Source of the DNA: a virus
Taxonomy: Duplodnaviria; Heunggongvirae; Uroviricota; Caudoviricetes
Reading direction: 5' to 3' (one strand)
IMG/VR virus record: IMGVR_UViG_2778261087_000006
Length of the DNA: 10,240 nt
The notes under the pieces were generated by a model, which made no database searches, had not been told where the DNA came from, and saw only the letters and a program-made list of their open reading frames with translations. Every line of letters begins with the position of its first letter. Position 1 is the first letter of the stretch. Positions 3,056-7,445 of this stretch are shown one piece after another. Made by a program: the position numbers and the translations under genes.

Positions 3056-3070
3056 TTACCTTTGAGGTGC
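3056..3070. promoter_or_regulatory. Variant operator-like site TTACC-tttga-GGTGC
   Basis: One arm is perfect and the other degenerate (GGTGC). Located between the Cro-like gene and the zinc-ribbon gene, just past the hairpin at 3085-3104. Confidence 0.35.
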
Positions 3071-3084
3071 GAATAGATATGAAA

Positions 3085-3104
3085 AGACCGCCGGATGGCG
3101 GTCT
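3085..3104 (-). terminator. Candidate partial terminator between the Cro-like and zinc-ribbon genes (tR1-like position)
   Basis: Perfect 8-bp stem AGACCGCC / GGCGGTCT with 4-nt loop. On the minus strand it is followed by UUUC-AUAUCUAUUC, which is U-rich but interrupted. Confidence 0.3.
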
Positions 3105-3125
3105 ACAGAGGGTTGTGGCTGGATA

Positions 3126-3356
3126 TCATGAGTAGAAGAAGTATGCCAGTTCTGCTTTTGAGCGCAGCCATTGTCTTGTTTTACAGGCTTTAAAAAGCCC
3201 ATTCATCAATACCTTACCTGGCATTTTGCGCTTACCTGTTAAGTGAGTCTGGATATAGTGACTCGTCGTTCCGGCTTCCTGTGCGAAGGCTTCACGCTCA
3301 TCCGGAGTAAGTGCAAGCCAGTGCTTTTTGAAATCGAAATGTCCGTTATCGCTCAT
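3126..3356 (-). CDS. Cro-like small HTH DNA-binding protein, 76 aa
   Basis: Complete ORF, divergent from the repressor-like gene across an operator-rich intergenic region. First gene of the minus-strand operon. HTH-like segment ...EAFAQEAGTTSHYIQTHLTGKRKMPGK.... Confidence 0.6.
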   Translation of the reverse strand: MSDNGHFDFKKHWLALTPDEREAFAQEAGTTSHYIQTHLTGKRKMPGKVLMNGLFKACKTRQWLRSKAELAYFFYS

Positions 3357-3381
3357 AGCTATTGCCTGATATTTATTTCAG

Positions 3382-3410
3382 ATAATAAATATTCACCCAT
3401 AAGGTAACAA
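3382..3410 (-). promoter_or_regulatory. Candidate pR-like promoter for the Cro-like operon
   Basis: On the minus strand: -35 TTGTTA (plus 3405-3410), 17-bp spacer, -10 TATTAT (plus 3382-3387). The operator-like site at 3393-3407 sits in the spacer. Confidence 0.4.
3393..3407. promoter_or_regulatory. Operator-like site TCACC-cataa-GGTAA (variant)
   Basis: Inverted repeat with one mismatch in the left arm. Overlaps the pR-like promoter spacer. Confidence 0.4.
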
Positions 3411-3423
3411 AAATCAAGGATAG

Positions 3424-3438
3424 TTACCTATGGGGTGC
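3424..3438. promoter_or_regulatory. Operator-like site TTACC-tatgg-GGTGC (variant)
   Basis: Left arm perfect, right arm degenerate. Adjacent to the site at 3441-3455, centre-to-centre 17 bp. Confidence 0.4.
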
Positions 3439-3440
3439 AT

Positions 3441-3455
3441 TTACCTATTGGGTAA
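3441..3455. promoter_or_regulatory. Operator-like site TTACC-tattg-GGTAA
   Basis: Perfect palindrome arms. About 55 bp upstream of the repressor-like gene start, in the position of an autoregulatory (pRM-type) operator. Confidence 0.5.
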
Positions 3456-3510
3456 TATTGCTTTAAATTGAATCATCTACTGATTCATATATGAGGCGAT
3501 TTTCCAGAAA

Positions 3511-4095
3511 ATGAAAAGTATCCAGGACGTCCGCAGGCAAAATCTCAACGACTTGATCGACCGTGAATTCAATGGTGTTCAGACGCGGATGGCAGAAAAA
3601 CTTGGAACTCAGGCAAATCTGGTAAACCGCTGGGCTCTTGGCAAGAAGGTTATCGGCGACCAGGTTGCGCGAAAAATTGAAGCTGCCGCCAATAAACCCC
3701 GTAACTGGCTTGATATCGATCGCTCGCTTTCTCAGGAAGGTTTTCAGCCTGTCGGCCCAAGCGACATTGGTCAGCTGGCGGCTCACAACCTAGAACGCTG
3801 GATGAGCGAAAGCCGCGACCTTTCAACGCAGGGAAAACTTCACCGCGCATCCGGCGTCGCCCAGGTGACAATCAGCCGCCTGTTAAACAATGAGGTCAGT
3901 GTTTCCATTTCCACCCTGGAGAATGTTGCATCCGCATTCGGGCGTCACGGCTATGAATTACTGATTCACCCGCACGACCCTGCGACCATCAACTATGACC
4001 GCTCGCGCTACGCATTGTTACCTGAAACAGAGAAGGCAAAGATCGAAAGTTACATTGAATTTGTCATCAGCCAGAACGAAAAAAACAAACAATAA
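3511..4095 (+). CDS. Putative prophage repressor (CI-position), 194 aa, two predicted HTH domains, no S24 peptidase domain
   Basis: Complete ORF divergent from the Cro-like gene and followed by a strong terminator, then the pL-like promoter. N-terminal Cro/YdaS-like HTH (...GVQTRMAEKLGTQANLVNRW...) and a second XRE-like HTH (...ASGVAQVTISRLLNNEVSVSISTLENVA...). No obvious SD before the ATG, which resembles leaderless or weakly initiated cI genes. Confidence 0.65.
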   Translation: MKSIQDVRRQNLNDLIDREFNGVQTRMAEKLGTQANLVNRWALGKKVIGDQVARKIEAAANKPRNWLDIDRSLSQEGFQPVGPSDIGQLAAHNLERWMSESRDLSTQGKLHRASGVAQVTISRLLNNEVSVSISTLENVASAFGRHGYELLIHPHDPATINYDRSRYALLPETEKAKIESYIEFVISQNEKNKQ

Positions 4096-4116: not shown

Positions 4117-4141
4117 AAGCCGCCTCATGGCGGCTTTTTTA
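4117..4141 (+). terminator. Rho-independent terminator downstream of the repressor-like gene
   Basis: 8-bp GC-rich stem AAGCCGCC / GGCGGCTT with loop TCAT, followed by a run of 6-7 T. Lies 22 nt after the stop codon. Confidence 0.7.
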
Positions 4142-4153
4142 TTGCCTGTGCGA

Positions 4154-4168
4154 TTACCTGATGGGTAA
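4154..4168. promoter_or_regulatory. Operator-like site TTACC-tgatg-GGTAA
   Basis: Perfect palindrome arms, 20 bp upstream of the -35 of the pL-like promoter. Confidence 0.5.
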
Positions 4169-4187
4169 TTTTTTTAACTCATATCTA

Positions 4188-4216
4188 TTGACATCAAACC
4201 AGATACGCATAATTAT
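4188..4216 (+). promoter_or_regulatory. pL-like promoter for the plus-strand early operon
   Basis: Consensus -35 TTGACA at 4188-4193. Candidate -10 AATTAT at 4211-4216 with 17-bp spacer (CATAAT at 4208-4213 is an alternative). The operator-like site at 4216-4230 overlaps the -10/+1 region. Confidence 0.5.
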
Positions 4217-4230
4217 TACCTCAACGGTAA
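4216..4230. promoter_or_regulatory. Operator-like site TTACC-tcaac-GGTAA
   Basis: Perfect palindrome arms overlapping the -10/start region of the pL-like promoter. An extra GGTAAC half-site follows at 4239-4244. Confidence 0.5.
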
Positions 4231-4249: not shown

Positions 4250-4411
4250 ATGCAGTGGAAAATCATCAACGGTTGGTACTGCGTTACTGCATGCGGATTC
4301 ATGAGCTGGAAGTTCCGCACCTTACAGGAAGGCATTAAGTGGGCTTTCGTCAGCAAAGAAGCTCGCGATGTGGCCAACGATAACGAGATATGGGAGGAGG
4401 TTAGCAAATGA
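4250..4411 (+). CDS. Small ORF, 53 aa, first gene of the pL-like operon (not in the ORF track)
   Basis: ATG at 4250 with GAGG 10 nt upstream. Translated by hand without internal stops: MQWKIINGWYCVTACGFMSWKFRTLQEGIKWAFVSKEARDVANDNEIWEEVSK. Its TGA overlaps the ATG of the next gene (ATGA at 4408-4411). Competes with the opposite-strand track ORF 4216-4407. Confidence 0.4.
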   Translation: MQWKIINGWYCVTACGFMSWKFRTLQEGIKWAFVSKEARDVANDNEIWEEVSK

Positions 4412-5442
4412 GTGAATTATCAATCATCGAAATCACACCAGATATGGCACCAAGAATTTACGTTGAAAAAGGACTGGAAAAGTTTCTCGAGCAGATCCGT
4501 GAAGGTGTTAATGAAGTGCCTGACATTAGCACAGACAAAGGCAGAAAGCGCATTGCATCTCTGGCTGCGAAGGTTTCAAGAAGTAAAACAGCGGTAGAAA
4601 AACCAGGACGTGATTATCTGAAACGCCTGAAAGAACAGCCGAAAGTAGTTGAAGCAGAGTTACGACGCTTCGTAACCGAATGCGATCGGCTTCGTGATGA
4701 AGTACGCCGCCCACTCACCAAGTGGGAAAATGCTGAGAAATTACGCACTGAAGCACTGCAACAACGCCTGACAAATTTGCGAGCACTGGCTGACGTGATC
4801 GATCTCTCCGGAAACTACTTGCCATCAACTGATATTCAGGAACGAATTCAAGAGGCTAAATCAGTAGCACTTGATGAGAGTTGGCAGGAGTACGCAGCAG
4901 AAGCTGGAGTAGCCAAGGATTCAACCATCCAGAAACTGGAAGAATCACTCGCAGTAGCTCAAAAACGCGAGCATGAAGCCGCTGAGCTGGAGAGACTTCG
5001 CAAAGAAGCGGAGGAAAAAGCGCGCATTGAGCGAGAAGAGAATATCCGCCGGGAAGCTGCTGAACAGGCCAGGCTCGAAGCTGAACAAAAAGCGAAAGCT
5101 GAAATTGATGCTGCGGCACGCCTAGCGGCGGAAGAGAAAGCACGTGCTGAAGTAGCAGAACGTCAGCGAATTGAAGCAGAGCAGCGTGCACGACGCGAAA
5201 AAGAAGAAGCCGTTGCCGAGGAACGCCGACGCCAAGAGGAGGCAGAAAAAGCCCGCATTGAAGAACAGAAGCGTATCGCCGACGAAGAAGCGCGCCGAGC
5301 TGCGGATAAAGAGCATCGCCGTACCGTTAACCGCAGAGTAATCGCAGATCTGATAGCCCAAGGCATTCCCGAAGAATTCGCGCAGAAAGCAATGTTGGCT
5401 ATCGCTGGCGGCAAAGTGCAGGACGCGTATATCAAATATTGA
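4408..5442 (+). CDS. Coiled-coil protein, 344 aa, with a long E/A/R/K-rich charged helical repeat region (TolA-like composition only); function unknown
   Basis: Complete ORF with strong RBS GGGAGGAGG 7 nt upstream. C-terminal half is dominated by EAEQ/ARAE/ERRR repeats from a purine-rich DNA stretch (about 4980-5320). Sits in the accessory position just after pL. Confidence 0.8.
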   Translation: MSELSIIEITPDMAPRIYVEKGLEKFLEQIREGVNEVPDISTDKGRKRIASLAAKVSRSKTAVEKPGRDYLKRLKEQPKVVEAELRRFVTECDRLRDEVRRPLTKWENAEKLRTEALQQRLTNLRALADVIDLSGNYLPSTDIQERIQEAKSVALDESWQEYAAEAGVAKDSTIQKLEESLAVAQKREHEAAELERLRKEAEEKARIEREENIRREAAEQARLEAEQKAKAEIDAAARLAAEEKARAEVAERQRIEAEQRARREKEEAVAEERRRQEEAEKARIEEQKRIADEEARRAADKEHRRTVNRRVIADLIAQGIPEEFAQKAMLAIAGGKVQDAYIKY

Positions 5443-5449
5443 GGTGGGT

Positions 5450-5749
5450 ATGAACGTTAATCAGCAGAAAAATCTTCAAAAAATCATGCTGGCATTCGAC
5501 AAGGACTACCGCCTGTCAGAACAGCTATATGACCGACAAGTTGAACTGATTGAGAGTATCCGGCTTCATCAACTGGCATCAACTTTCGACGTTGTAACAG
5601 TTAAAGGCGTTCGCCAGGAAGTACTGGAGGCCGCTAAAGACAGCCCTGAGTTCGAAGAACTAATGGATGCCTACCGGCGCGAGGCAATGGCAATTATCGC
5701 CCGCTGGGATCTGGCTGATCAGATTGATGGGCAGAGGGACGCGGCATGA
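5450..5749 (+). CDS. Small protein, 99 aa, at the Gam position; possible Gam-like host-nuclease inhibitor
   Basis: ATG at 5450 with GAGGTGGG upstream, and the stop overlaps the exonuclease ATG (ATGA at 5746-5749). Weak local resemblance to remembered lambda Gam C-terminus (DSPEFEELMDAYRREAMAIIA versus [21 protein letters not shown]). Sits just upstream of the exonuclease/annealase pair. Confidence 0.6.
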   Translation: MNVNQQKNLQKIMLAFDKDYRLSEQLYDRQVELIESIRLHQLASTFDVVTVKGVRQEVLEAAKDSPEFEELMDAYRREAMAIIARWDLADQIDGQRDAA

Positions 5750-6567
5750 ATCCGGGAATTTATTTCGATATCAGCAACGAGGACTACCACGCCGGTGACG
5801 GCGTGAGTAAGTCGCAGCTAGATATGGTGGCTAAGAACCCTGCCCTTCTGAAATGGGTGAAGGCTGCTCCGGAAGACGAAGAGAAGAAGTCTGCACTGGA
5901 CATGGGTACTGCTCTGCACTGTCTGCTTCTGGAACCTGGAGAGTTTGACAAACGCTTCATCGTTTCACCGAAATTCGATCGTCGGACAAAACAAGGTAAA
6001 GCTGACGAAGAGGCATTTATTCGTGATGTAGCGGATATGGGGATTTCGGTACTTGATGCAGAGCAGTGGCGAAAACTGGAGCTGATGCGTGATAGCGCAA
6101 TGGCTCACCCGGCGGCACGCTGGATGTTGGAAGCACCTGGTTACTGCGAAGCATCAATGTACTGGAACGATGAAGATACGGGTGAGTTGTGCCGAATTCG
6201 TCCAGACAAATGGCTGAACGAGCACAACGTGATCGTCGACGTGAAAAAGGTTGCAGATATGGACCGTTTTGCACGCCACATCGAGGAGTTCCGCTACCAC
6301 GTGCAGGACGCAATGTACCGCGAAGGCGCAATGAGGGTTACTGGTCAGCCACATGGTTTTTTCTTTCTTGCCGTGAGCGAAAGCATTGATTGTGGTCGGT
6401 ATCCGGTACGCGTGTTCGAGCTGGATGCGCCGGATGTCGATGCCGGGCACGCTCTGTTCCGCCGGGATCTGAATACCTATCACGAATGCCGCATCAACGA
6501 TGAATGGGGCGGAGTGGAAATTATTAAACGCCCTGACTGGGCACGTAAACAGGATATGTACGTATGA
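5746..6567 (+). CDS. PD-(D/E)XK-family exonuclease (RecE-catalytic-domain-like; often annotated exodeoxyribonuclease VIII), 273 aa
   Basis: Catalytic-type motif ...CRIRPDKWLNEHNVIVDVKKV... (PD ... D-x-K). RBS AGAGGGA 6 nt upstream. Translationally coupled to the downstream annealase gene (ATGA at 6564-6567). Confidence 0.8.
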   Translation: MNPGIYFDISNEDYHAGDGVSKSQLDMVAKNPALLKWVKAAPEDEEKKSALDMGTALHCLLLEPGEFDKRFIVSPKFDRRTKQGKADEEAFIRDVADMGISVLDAEQWRKLELMRDSAMAHPAARWMLEAPGYCEASMYWNDEDTGELCRIRPDKWLNEHNVIVDVKKVADMDRFARHIEEFRYHVQDAMYREGAMRVTGQPHGFFFLAVSESIDCGRYPVRVFELDAPDVDAGHALFRRDLNTYHECRINDEWGGVEIIKRPDWARKQDMYV

Positions 6568-7445
6568 GCAATGATATCGCAATCACATCACAACCAGGCG
6601 CAACTGTAGGCACTGCTGCGGCAATCTTCAGCCCCGAGGGCATGAATCAACTGGTGCGTTTCGCGGAGTTGATGTCACAAAGCAAAGCGACTGTACCGAA
6701 ACATCTTGAAGGCAAACCTGCCGATTGCCTGGCGGTGACCATGCAGGCGGCACAGTGGGGAATGAACCCGTTCGCCGTGGCGCAGAAAACGCATGTGGTA
6801 AACGGAACGTTAGGCTACGAAGCACAGTTGGTAAACGCGGTCGTATCCTCTTCCAGCCTGCTGGCGACACGCCTGAATTATCGCTGGAGCGGTGACTGGT
6901 CGAATGTTAACGGCAAAACAGATAAATCACCTAATCTGACGGTAACTGTGTCAGCAGTTCTTAAAGGAGAAGCAGAACCACGTGAGCTTACCATCAGTAT
7001 GGCGCAAGCCGGAGTGCGTAACTCTCCATTGTGGGAACAGGATCCGCGCCAGCAGCTTGCCTATCTTTGCACGAAACGATGGGCTCGCCTGCACGCTCCT
7101 GATGTACTTCTCGGTGTTTACACACCAGACGAATTACAGGAAACGGCACCGCGCGTTGAGCGAGACATTACTCCGCAAACGACCACTGCTGCGGGAATGA
7201 ACAGTCTGATCAACGCTAAAACAGTGAAAAAGCCTGATGAGCAAACGCGTAAAGCGGATAGCCGTGATCCAGAAGAAATGCTGATGGCCTTTACCAGCGC
7301 AGCGATGAATTACAGCACTGTCTCCGAACTAGATAAGGCTTACAAATACATTGCACAAAAACTTTCAGATGATGACGAACTACTGGCAAAAGCCACCGAC
7401 GTTTACAGCGTTCGCCGGGAAGAATTAAACGAAACATCTATGTAA
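6564..7445 (+). CDS. RecT/Redbeta-superfamily single-strand annealing protein, 293 aa
   Basis: Paired with the upstream exonuclease. Local resemblance to remembered lambda Bet (...QWGMNPFAVAQKTHVV... versus ...QYGLNPWTKEIYAF...). Exact subfamily not resolved. Confidence 0.75.
   Translation: MSNDIAITSQPGATVGTAAAIFSPEGMNQLVRFAELMSQSKATVPKHLEGKPADCLAVTMQAAQWGMNPFAVAQKTHVVNGTLGYEAQLVNAVVSSSSLLATRLNYRWSGDWSNVNGKTDKSPNLTVTVSAVLKGEAEPRELTISMAQAGVRNSPLWEQDPRQQLAYLCTKRWARLHAPDVLLGVYTPDELQETAPRVERDITPQTTTAAGMNSLINAKTVKKPDEQTRKADSRDPEEMLMAFTSAAMNYSTVSELDKAYKYIAQKLSDDDELLAKATDVYSVRREELNETSM

Follow-up and report, generated by a model that had tools for sequence, protein, structure and literature searches.

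A Uetakevirus prophage repressor that has two HTH-type domains but lacks an S24 peptidase is probably an orthologue of the antirepressor-controlled Rep of phage SPC32H

The open reading frame at positions 3511–4095 of the stretch of DNA analysed here (10,240 nucleotides, hereafter the window) most probably encodes a Uetakevirus lysogeny repressor that is an orthologue of Rep of Salmonella phage SPC32H. By analogy with SPC32H, such a repressor would not be cleaved upon induction and would be controlled by the antirepressor Ant and LexA. We assign this reading a probability of about 0.9. Non-cleavage and binding of Ant were shown for SPC32H Rep, which is only 42% identical to the protein from the window.

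Identity of the phage and of its repressor

With the early regions of four Escherichia phages, phiv142-3, phiV10, vB_EcoP_ZX5 (ZX5) and TL-2011b, the window shares 97–98% identity. It also matches prophages adjoining guaA in many E. coli genomes, and parts of it match 1154 of the 5426 complete E. coli genomes. Judging by its sequence, the window represents the early region of a phiV10/epsilon15-like prophage of the genus Uetakevirus, which comprises the epsilon15-like temperate podophages.

The rep ORF (3511–4095, + strand) begins with an ATG and encodes 194 residues. Its product is 99% identical to phiV10 gp40, whose GenBank note reads 'two helix-turn-helix motifs (PF01381); similar to putative repressor epsilon15p38', and 99.5% identical to ZX5 ORF21, from which it differs in one residue. 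ZX5 ORF21 has been stated to have the same sequence as phiV10 gp40, and its overexpression abolished free phage and cut the transcripts of the endolysin and holin genes by over 99.9% (PMC9782041). These effects of a 99.5%-identical protein (PMC9782041) bear out the original prediction that the ORF is the lysogeny repressor. Rep is already known: it is nearly identical to a repressor annotated in phiV10-type phages and clearly orthologous to SPC32H Rep, for which both structural and genetic work exists. We also considered that the protein is the antidote of a toxin-antitoxin pair, as implied by the label 'VapI antidote' in the record of phage BP9, and rejected this on the grounds of the locus, the operators, the ZX5 experiments and the homology to PDB entry 5D50.

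Homology to SPC32H Rep

A phmmer search aligned residues 1–190 of the window Rep with residues 2–197 of chain A of 5D50 ('Repressor', 199 residues; E = 4.1e-42). The match to 5D4Z, a C-terminal fragment covering residues 92–198 of Rep, had E = 4e-20. Both entries are SPC32H Rep, solved alone and with the antirepressor Ant. The BLASTP alignment of the window Rep with SPC32H Rep spans the full length (42% identity over 196 columns, E = 2e-53).

The N-terminal domain of SPC32H Rep binds DNA, the middle one mediates dimerisation, and the C-terminal one serves both tetramerisation and Ant binding. The DNA-binding form is the tetramer, which Ant, itself a tetramer, breaks by binding two Rep dimers. 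SPC32H belongs to a group of Salmonella systems with an antirepressor that is made once LexA has been cleaved and that inhibits the repressor by protein-protein contact. In the work of Kim & Ryu from 2013 (J Virol) and Kim et al. from 2016 (PNAS), SPC32H Rep reportedly remained uncleaved during the SOS response and LexA is said to bind the ant promoter. The AlphaFold model, Foldseek and Pfam all give the window Rep the same three-part architecture without a peptidase. Furthermore, its locus is of the SPC32H type, with a divergent cro-like gene and palindrome arrays at OR and OL within a Uetakevirus early region.

Domain structure of the window Rep

The gene and its parts are as follows.

3511–4095, + strand: rep, probable lysogeny repressor of the SPC32H-Rep family (phiV10 gp40, 99%; SPC32H Rep, 42%; 5D50_A)
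3511–3720, + strand: N-terminal HTH of rep, residues 1–70, inferred DNA-binding domain (Pfam, model, invariant helix)
3763–3966, + strand: second HTH-type domain of rep, residues 85–152 (HTH_3, five model helices, alignment to 5D4Z)
3967–4092, + strand: C-terminal element of rep, residues 153–194 (alignment to the C-terminus of 5D50 and 5D4Z)

The whole protein matched the Pfam family HTH_3 (PF01381) in two stretches with 38.5 bits (gathering threshold 23). The two halves were also scanned separately against Pfam with the HTH_3 cut-off of 23 bits. The C-terminal half alone scored 25.8 bits at residues 105–146, which is above the cut-off, and additionally matched HTH_26 and the LacI HTH. The N-terminal half alone gave matches below the cut-off at residues 21–67 (YdaS/Cro-like, 20.4 bits; HTH_3, 15.8 bits).

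An AlphaFold model of Rep, built on 46 homologues, is all-alpha. Helices at residues 4–59 (pLDDT 85–92) are followed by a disordered linker at 62–84, five helices at 85–151 and a helical C-terminus at 164–193, in which residues 172–193 form one long helix. The C-terminal element was modelled as a monomer and its pLDDT is moderate (56–74). A Foldseek search with this model placed 5D50 and 5D4Z first, with NHTF, SinR and other HTH proteins of the XRE type behind them. The two HTH_3 stretches and the all-helical model thus agree with the earlier claim that Rep contains two HTH-type domains.

The most conserved helix of Rep, with N36, R40 and W41 invariant in the 46 homologues, lies in the N-terminal domain, and the HTH that reads DNA is most likely the N-terminal one. 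The invariance of this helix within the family fits the conservation of the operator half-sites described below. Aligned with SPC32H Rep, the middle HTH-type domain corresponds to the dimerisation domain of that protein. The second HTH of the original prediction is present as a fold, but its equivalent in the solved homologue serves dimerisation and is not a second DNA-binding domain. The last ~40 residues (153–194), which that prediction had overlooked, are a separate conserved third element with Y162, L170 and F184 invariant in the homologue alignment. By the same alignment this element corresponds to the CAD of SPC32H Rep, the domain for tetramerisation and binding of Ant.

Absence of an S24 peptidase

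Pfam scans of the whole protein and of each half gave no match to Peptidase_S24 (PF00717) at E ≤ 10. All 86 related protein clusters come from Enterobacterales prophages and consist of short proteins of the XRE type that lack S24; none of them has a Pfam annotation of S24. Neither an Ala-Gly nor a Cys-Gly dipeptide is found in the Rep sequence. S24 domains are beta-rich; the Rep model is all-alpha and no S24 fold is among its Foldseek matches. Only ~40 residues are left past both HTH domains, too short a stretch to hold an S24 domain. The claim that Rep lacks the S24 module therefore holds by profile, cluster annotation, dipeptides and fold alike, and on the same evidence we ruled out a cryptic S24 domain. 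The profile search for Peptidase_S24 and HTH families that had been suggested as a check found HTH_3 above its cut-off and no S24 even at the permissive E-value.

Operators and promoters around rep

The regulatory features and the neighbouring gene are listed below.

3126–3356, − strand: Cro-like gene, 76 residues, divergent from rep (phrog_35 transcriptional repressor, E = 5.6e-13)
3382–3410, − strand: pR-like promoter for the Cro-like gene, TTGTTA-17-TATTAT (promoter scan; overlaps the operator at 3393–3407)
3393–3455, no strand: OR, three TTACC-N5-GGTAA operator-like sites at 3393–3407, 3424–3438 and 3441–3455 (motif scan)
4117–4144, + strand: intrinsic terminator past rep (stem-loop at 4117–4136, then a T-run)
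4154–4230, + strand: OL/pL, with TTGACA-17-AATTAT at 4188–4216 and perfect operators at 4154–4168 and 4216–4230 on either side
1048–1124, − strand: third operator-promoter-operator unit, with perfect sites at 1048–1062 and 1110–1124, ahead of the DUF1064 gene

All elements of the predicted layout were located in the window: rep is divergent from a Cro-like gene, shares operators with it and is followed by a terminator and then by pL. The Cro-like gene is syntenic with phiV10 gp41, epsilon15 gp39 and SPC32H_042. The terminator has an 8-bp stem with six G-C pairs followed by TTTTTATT, and the phiV10 record annotates a terminator at the syntenic position.

The 15-bp palindrome TTACC-N5-GGTAA is the sole enriched operator motif. 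It has 12 matches with at most two mismatches in the window, where 2.9 would be expected, and this number was never attained in 200 shuffles. The half-sites do not vary among six Uetakeviruses with repressors of 42–100% identity. The GenBank record of epsilon15 labels TTACC-N5-GGTAA sites throughout the genome as repressor binding sites, and the OL/pL layout of the window agrees with that of the OL repressor sites annotated on either side of a TTGACA in epsilon15. A further match in the window, at 3056–3070, has two mismatches. Genome-wide, phiV10 has 14 sites and SPC32H has 18, where 0.65 would be expected, and they occupy nearly every intergenic or promoter region. We do not put this distribution forward as a novelty, because it is already annotated in the epsilon15 record.

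In the third unit, a promoter-like element (TTGATT-17-TTTAAT) lies between the operators at 1048–1062 and 1110–1124, which is the same layout as at pL. The DUF1064 gene (700–1044, − strand) lies directly downstream. The syntenic pairs of sites are at 35070 and 35132 in phiV10 and at 35972 and 36034 in SPC32H. Since perfect operators surround the promoter-like element, Rep probably represses this transcription unit of the window as well.

Translation start of rep

The only Shine-Dalgarno-like tetramer upstream of the ATG at 3511 is GAGG, 14 nt away, which agrees with the earlier remark that the start codon lacks a clear Shine-Dalgarno sequence. The same holds for the five other Uetakeviruses that were aligned: none of the six phages has a Shine-Dalgarno sequence at normal spacing before the repressor ATG, so that the absence is real and conserved.

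From this lack of a ribosome-binding signal the original prediction had derived a leaderless or weakly initiated transcript. The leaderless option finds no support in the window, phiV10 or Tyrion, none of which has a −10-like hexamer just upstream of the rep ATG; weak initiation is still plausible. In epsilon15 and SPC32H, TACAAT is located 4 nt before the repressor ATG, and leaderless initiation is hence conceivable in these two phages. The sole conserved promoter-like pair before rep is TTACCT-17-TAAATT at 3441–3469, which overlaps the rep-proximal operator; a transcript starting from it would have a leader of ~35–40 nt. At the threshold of the promoter scan, no + strand promoter was found between 3400 and 3511.

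The antirepressor and its LexA box

The window contains no ant gene, the expected position of which is ~24 kb outside it, and no perfect LexA box (CTGT-N8-ACAG). One-mismatch matches to the box are at chance level (6 found, 3.7 expected). The statement that no antirepressor is visible in the window is thus correct.

In SPC32H, ant encodes 86 residues and adjoins the tailspike gene. At the syntenic position phiV10 encodes gp24, a 'hypothetical' protein by annotation that shares 88% identity with SPC32H Ant, and the Ant of the guaA prophage of E. coli E423 is 87% identical to it. The Rep of the E423 prophage is 99% identical to that of the window. In the genomes with a 99%-identical Rep (phiV10 and the E423 prophage), ant is found next to the tailspike gene ~24 kb from rep. 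A perfect LexA box precedes ant by ~25 nt from the start codon in all three genomes (CTGTATGTTTATACAG in SPC32H, CTGTGTATTTATACAG in phiV10 and CTGTATAAATATACAG in E423). Furthermore, Ant is present in 35 of the 36 phage-collection records that have a full-length Rep homologue.

The LexA-boxed Ant in genomes with a 99%-identical Rep, together with this co-occurrence and the Rep/Ant mechanism of SPC32H, supports the original prediction that induction proceeds through an antirepressor and not through RecA-mediated autocleavage. Prophages of the phiV10 species have been found to be induced 21- to 47-fold by a DNA-damaging microcin, which fits SOS-dependent induction.

The ant genes are at 20543–20800 (− strand) in phiV10 and at 35387–35644 (− strand) in the E423 prophage stretch. 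The records of phiV10, ZX5, TL-2011b, epsilon15 and the RefSeq E. coli prophages give Ant no label other than 'hypothetical protein'. Ant is 83–88% conserved between the Salmonella and E. coli phages, while its partner Rep is 42% conserved.

Just past the ant stop codon and before the gene of a Bro-N protein, phiV10 carries a perfect operator, TTACCTTTGCGGTAA on the + strand. It is the centre of a longer perfect inverted repeat with 18 bp per arm (GGAGTGCTTATATTTACC...GGTAAATATAAGCACTCC). The repeat between the two genes is located at 20480–20530 in phiV10 and at 35330–35375 in the E423 stretch, where it is imperfect. Rep binding, transcription termination or both are conceivable roles of this repeat.

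Downstream of ant, the Bro-N protein has a C-terminal segment (about residues 149–223) that is 42% identical to Ant (E ~1e-15). The segment is present in the Bro-N proteins of the E423 prophage (34381–35073 of the stretch, − strand) and of ZX5 (ORF4, 3074–3769, + strand). In phiV10 gp23 (19646–20230, − strand), only its first ~32 residues are kept. By this likeness, E. coli Uetakeviruses may carry two Ant-type proteins. When ZX5 ORF4 was tested as an 'anti-repressor', its overexpression lowered the prophage titre ~1000-fold (PMC9782041), an effect that the Ant-like C-terminus would explain.

Proposed mechanism and alternatives

By analogy with SPC32H, we propose that the N-terminal HTH of Rep would read the operator half-sites, the second HTH-like domain would dimerise the protein and the C-terminal element would assemble the tetramers that are the DNA-binding form. 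The operators overlap the pR-like and pL-like promoters. Upon DNA damage, cleavage of LexA would de-repress ant, and tetrameric Ant would bind the C-terminal domains of two Rep dimers, taking Rep off the DNA. As Ant would remove Rep after LexA cleavage, induction would be SOS-dependent without cleavage of the repressor.

Two other readings concern the repressor itself. One of them supposes that Rep hides a LexA-like self-cleavage module and that induction occurs by RecA-stimulated autocleavage. We found nothing in favour of it, and with no S24 match at E ≤ 10, no S24 annotation in any of the 86 clusters, neither dipeptide, an all-alpha model devoid of S24 fold matches and ~40 residues as the only space for such a module, we regard its probability as practically nil. 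The other reading lets both HTH domains bind DNA, so that one monomer would read two different sites. It would account for the fact that the second domain is the stronger HTH_3 match (25.8 versus 15.8 bits), but the only enriched motif is a simple 15-bp palindrome, the most conserved helix (N36, R40, W41) belongs to the N-terminal domain, and in the solved homologue it is the N-terminus that binds DNA while the middle domain dimerises. This makes a second DNA-reading domain very improbable.

A further reading accepts the repressor as described and concerns the inducer, which in the phiV10 clade would mainly be the downstream Bro-N protein with its Ant-like C-terminus, possibly in response to a different signal, and not the small LexA-controlled Ant. 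The 42% identity of the C-terminal segment to Ant in the E423 and ZX5 proteins and the ~1000-fold drop of the prophage titre upon overexpression of ZX5 ORF4 (PMC9782041) speak for it. However, the segment is cut down to ~32 residues in phiV10 gp23, a Bro-N gene is missing from that position in SPC32H and epsilon15, and the small Ant with its LexA box is found in 35 of 36 records, which renders a leading role of the Bro-N protein unlikely. The two routes are not mutually exclusive. It is therefore conceivable, and we offer this as a tentative suggestion only, that the phiV10-type switch has two antirepressor inputs, namely the LexA-controlled Ant and a Bro-N-fused Ant-like domain encoded past the terminator downstream of ant. 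If so, the second input could couple induction to a non-SOS signal or act on the Reps of co-resident prophages. Conservation of Ant far above that of Rep would allow cross-talk between heteroimmune Uetakeviruses. For the window itself, we retain the SPC32H-type repressor under Ant/LexA control as the preferred reading.

Other genes in the window

The second gene of the pL operon (4408–5442, + strand) encodes a 344-residue coiled-coil protein with a high content of Glu, Ala, Arg and Lys, which falls into phrog_1376 (unknown function). While phiv142-3 and E. coli prophages have this gene, phiV10 lacks it, and the alignment with phiV10 stops just before the gene. A YqaJ-type exonuclease (5746–6567) and RecT (6564–7445) are encoded by separate, overlapping + strand genes in the window, and at the syntenic position of phiV10 (29722–31482) a single CDS is annotated as 'fusion of RecE and RecT'.

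Significance and comparison with known systems

Beyond correct annotation, the significance of these findings is small. The proper label of the repressor is SPC32H-type Rep, Ant/LexA-controlled, compared to which 'HTH domain protein' and 'VapI antidote' are less accurate. Likewise, the 85-residue 'hypothetical protein' adjoining the tailspike gene in phiV10-like prophages should be labelled Ant. Knowledge of LexA/Ant induction helps to predict the behaviour of these common prophages under DNA-damaging antibiotics or bacteriocins.

The closest known proteins are phiV10 gp40, ZX5 ORF21 and the TL-2011b repressor, which occupy the same locus, are 99–99.5% identical to the window Rep and are putative repressors according to GenBank. 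They differ from it by one or two substitutions, for instance S187N. The epsilon15 repressor gp38, whose GenBank record cites an HHpred match to 5d50_A, is at the same position, has the same annotated operator motif and is 42% identical; it differs in its diverged sequence and in its host.

The characterised system that the window resembles most is Rep/Ant of SPC32H. The likeness extends to full-length homology, protein length, the three-part architecture, the lack of S24, the genus, synteny and the operator half-sites. The two Rep sequences have diverged (42% identity), the phage of the window has E. coli as its host, and the central 5 bp of the operators are A/T-rich in SPC32H but mixed in the window. 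Unlike SPC32H, some of the E. coli members add the gene of the Bro-N/Ant-like fusion downstream of ant.

Like Rep, repressors of the lambda CI/LexA type have an N-terminal HTH and oligomerise by means of C-terminal parts, and their gene likewise lies between OL and OR and diverges from cro. Rep differs from them in being all-alpha, without an S24 domain (Ser-Lys dyad) and without an Ala-Gly site. The same logic as proposed here, a non-cleavable repressor inactivated by a LexA-repressed antirepressor, is known from CI/Tum of coliphage 186, from Gifsy/Fels-2 and from Ant of P22. No sequence relationship of these proteins to Rep or Ant was detected, and their repressors and antirepressors have other folds; P22 c2, unlike the window Rep, additionally has an S24 domain.
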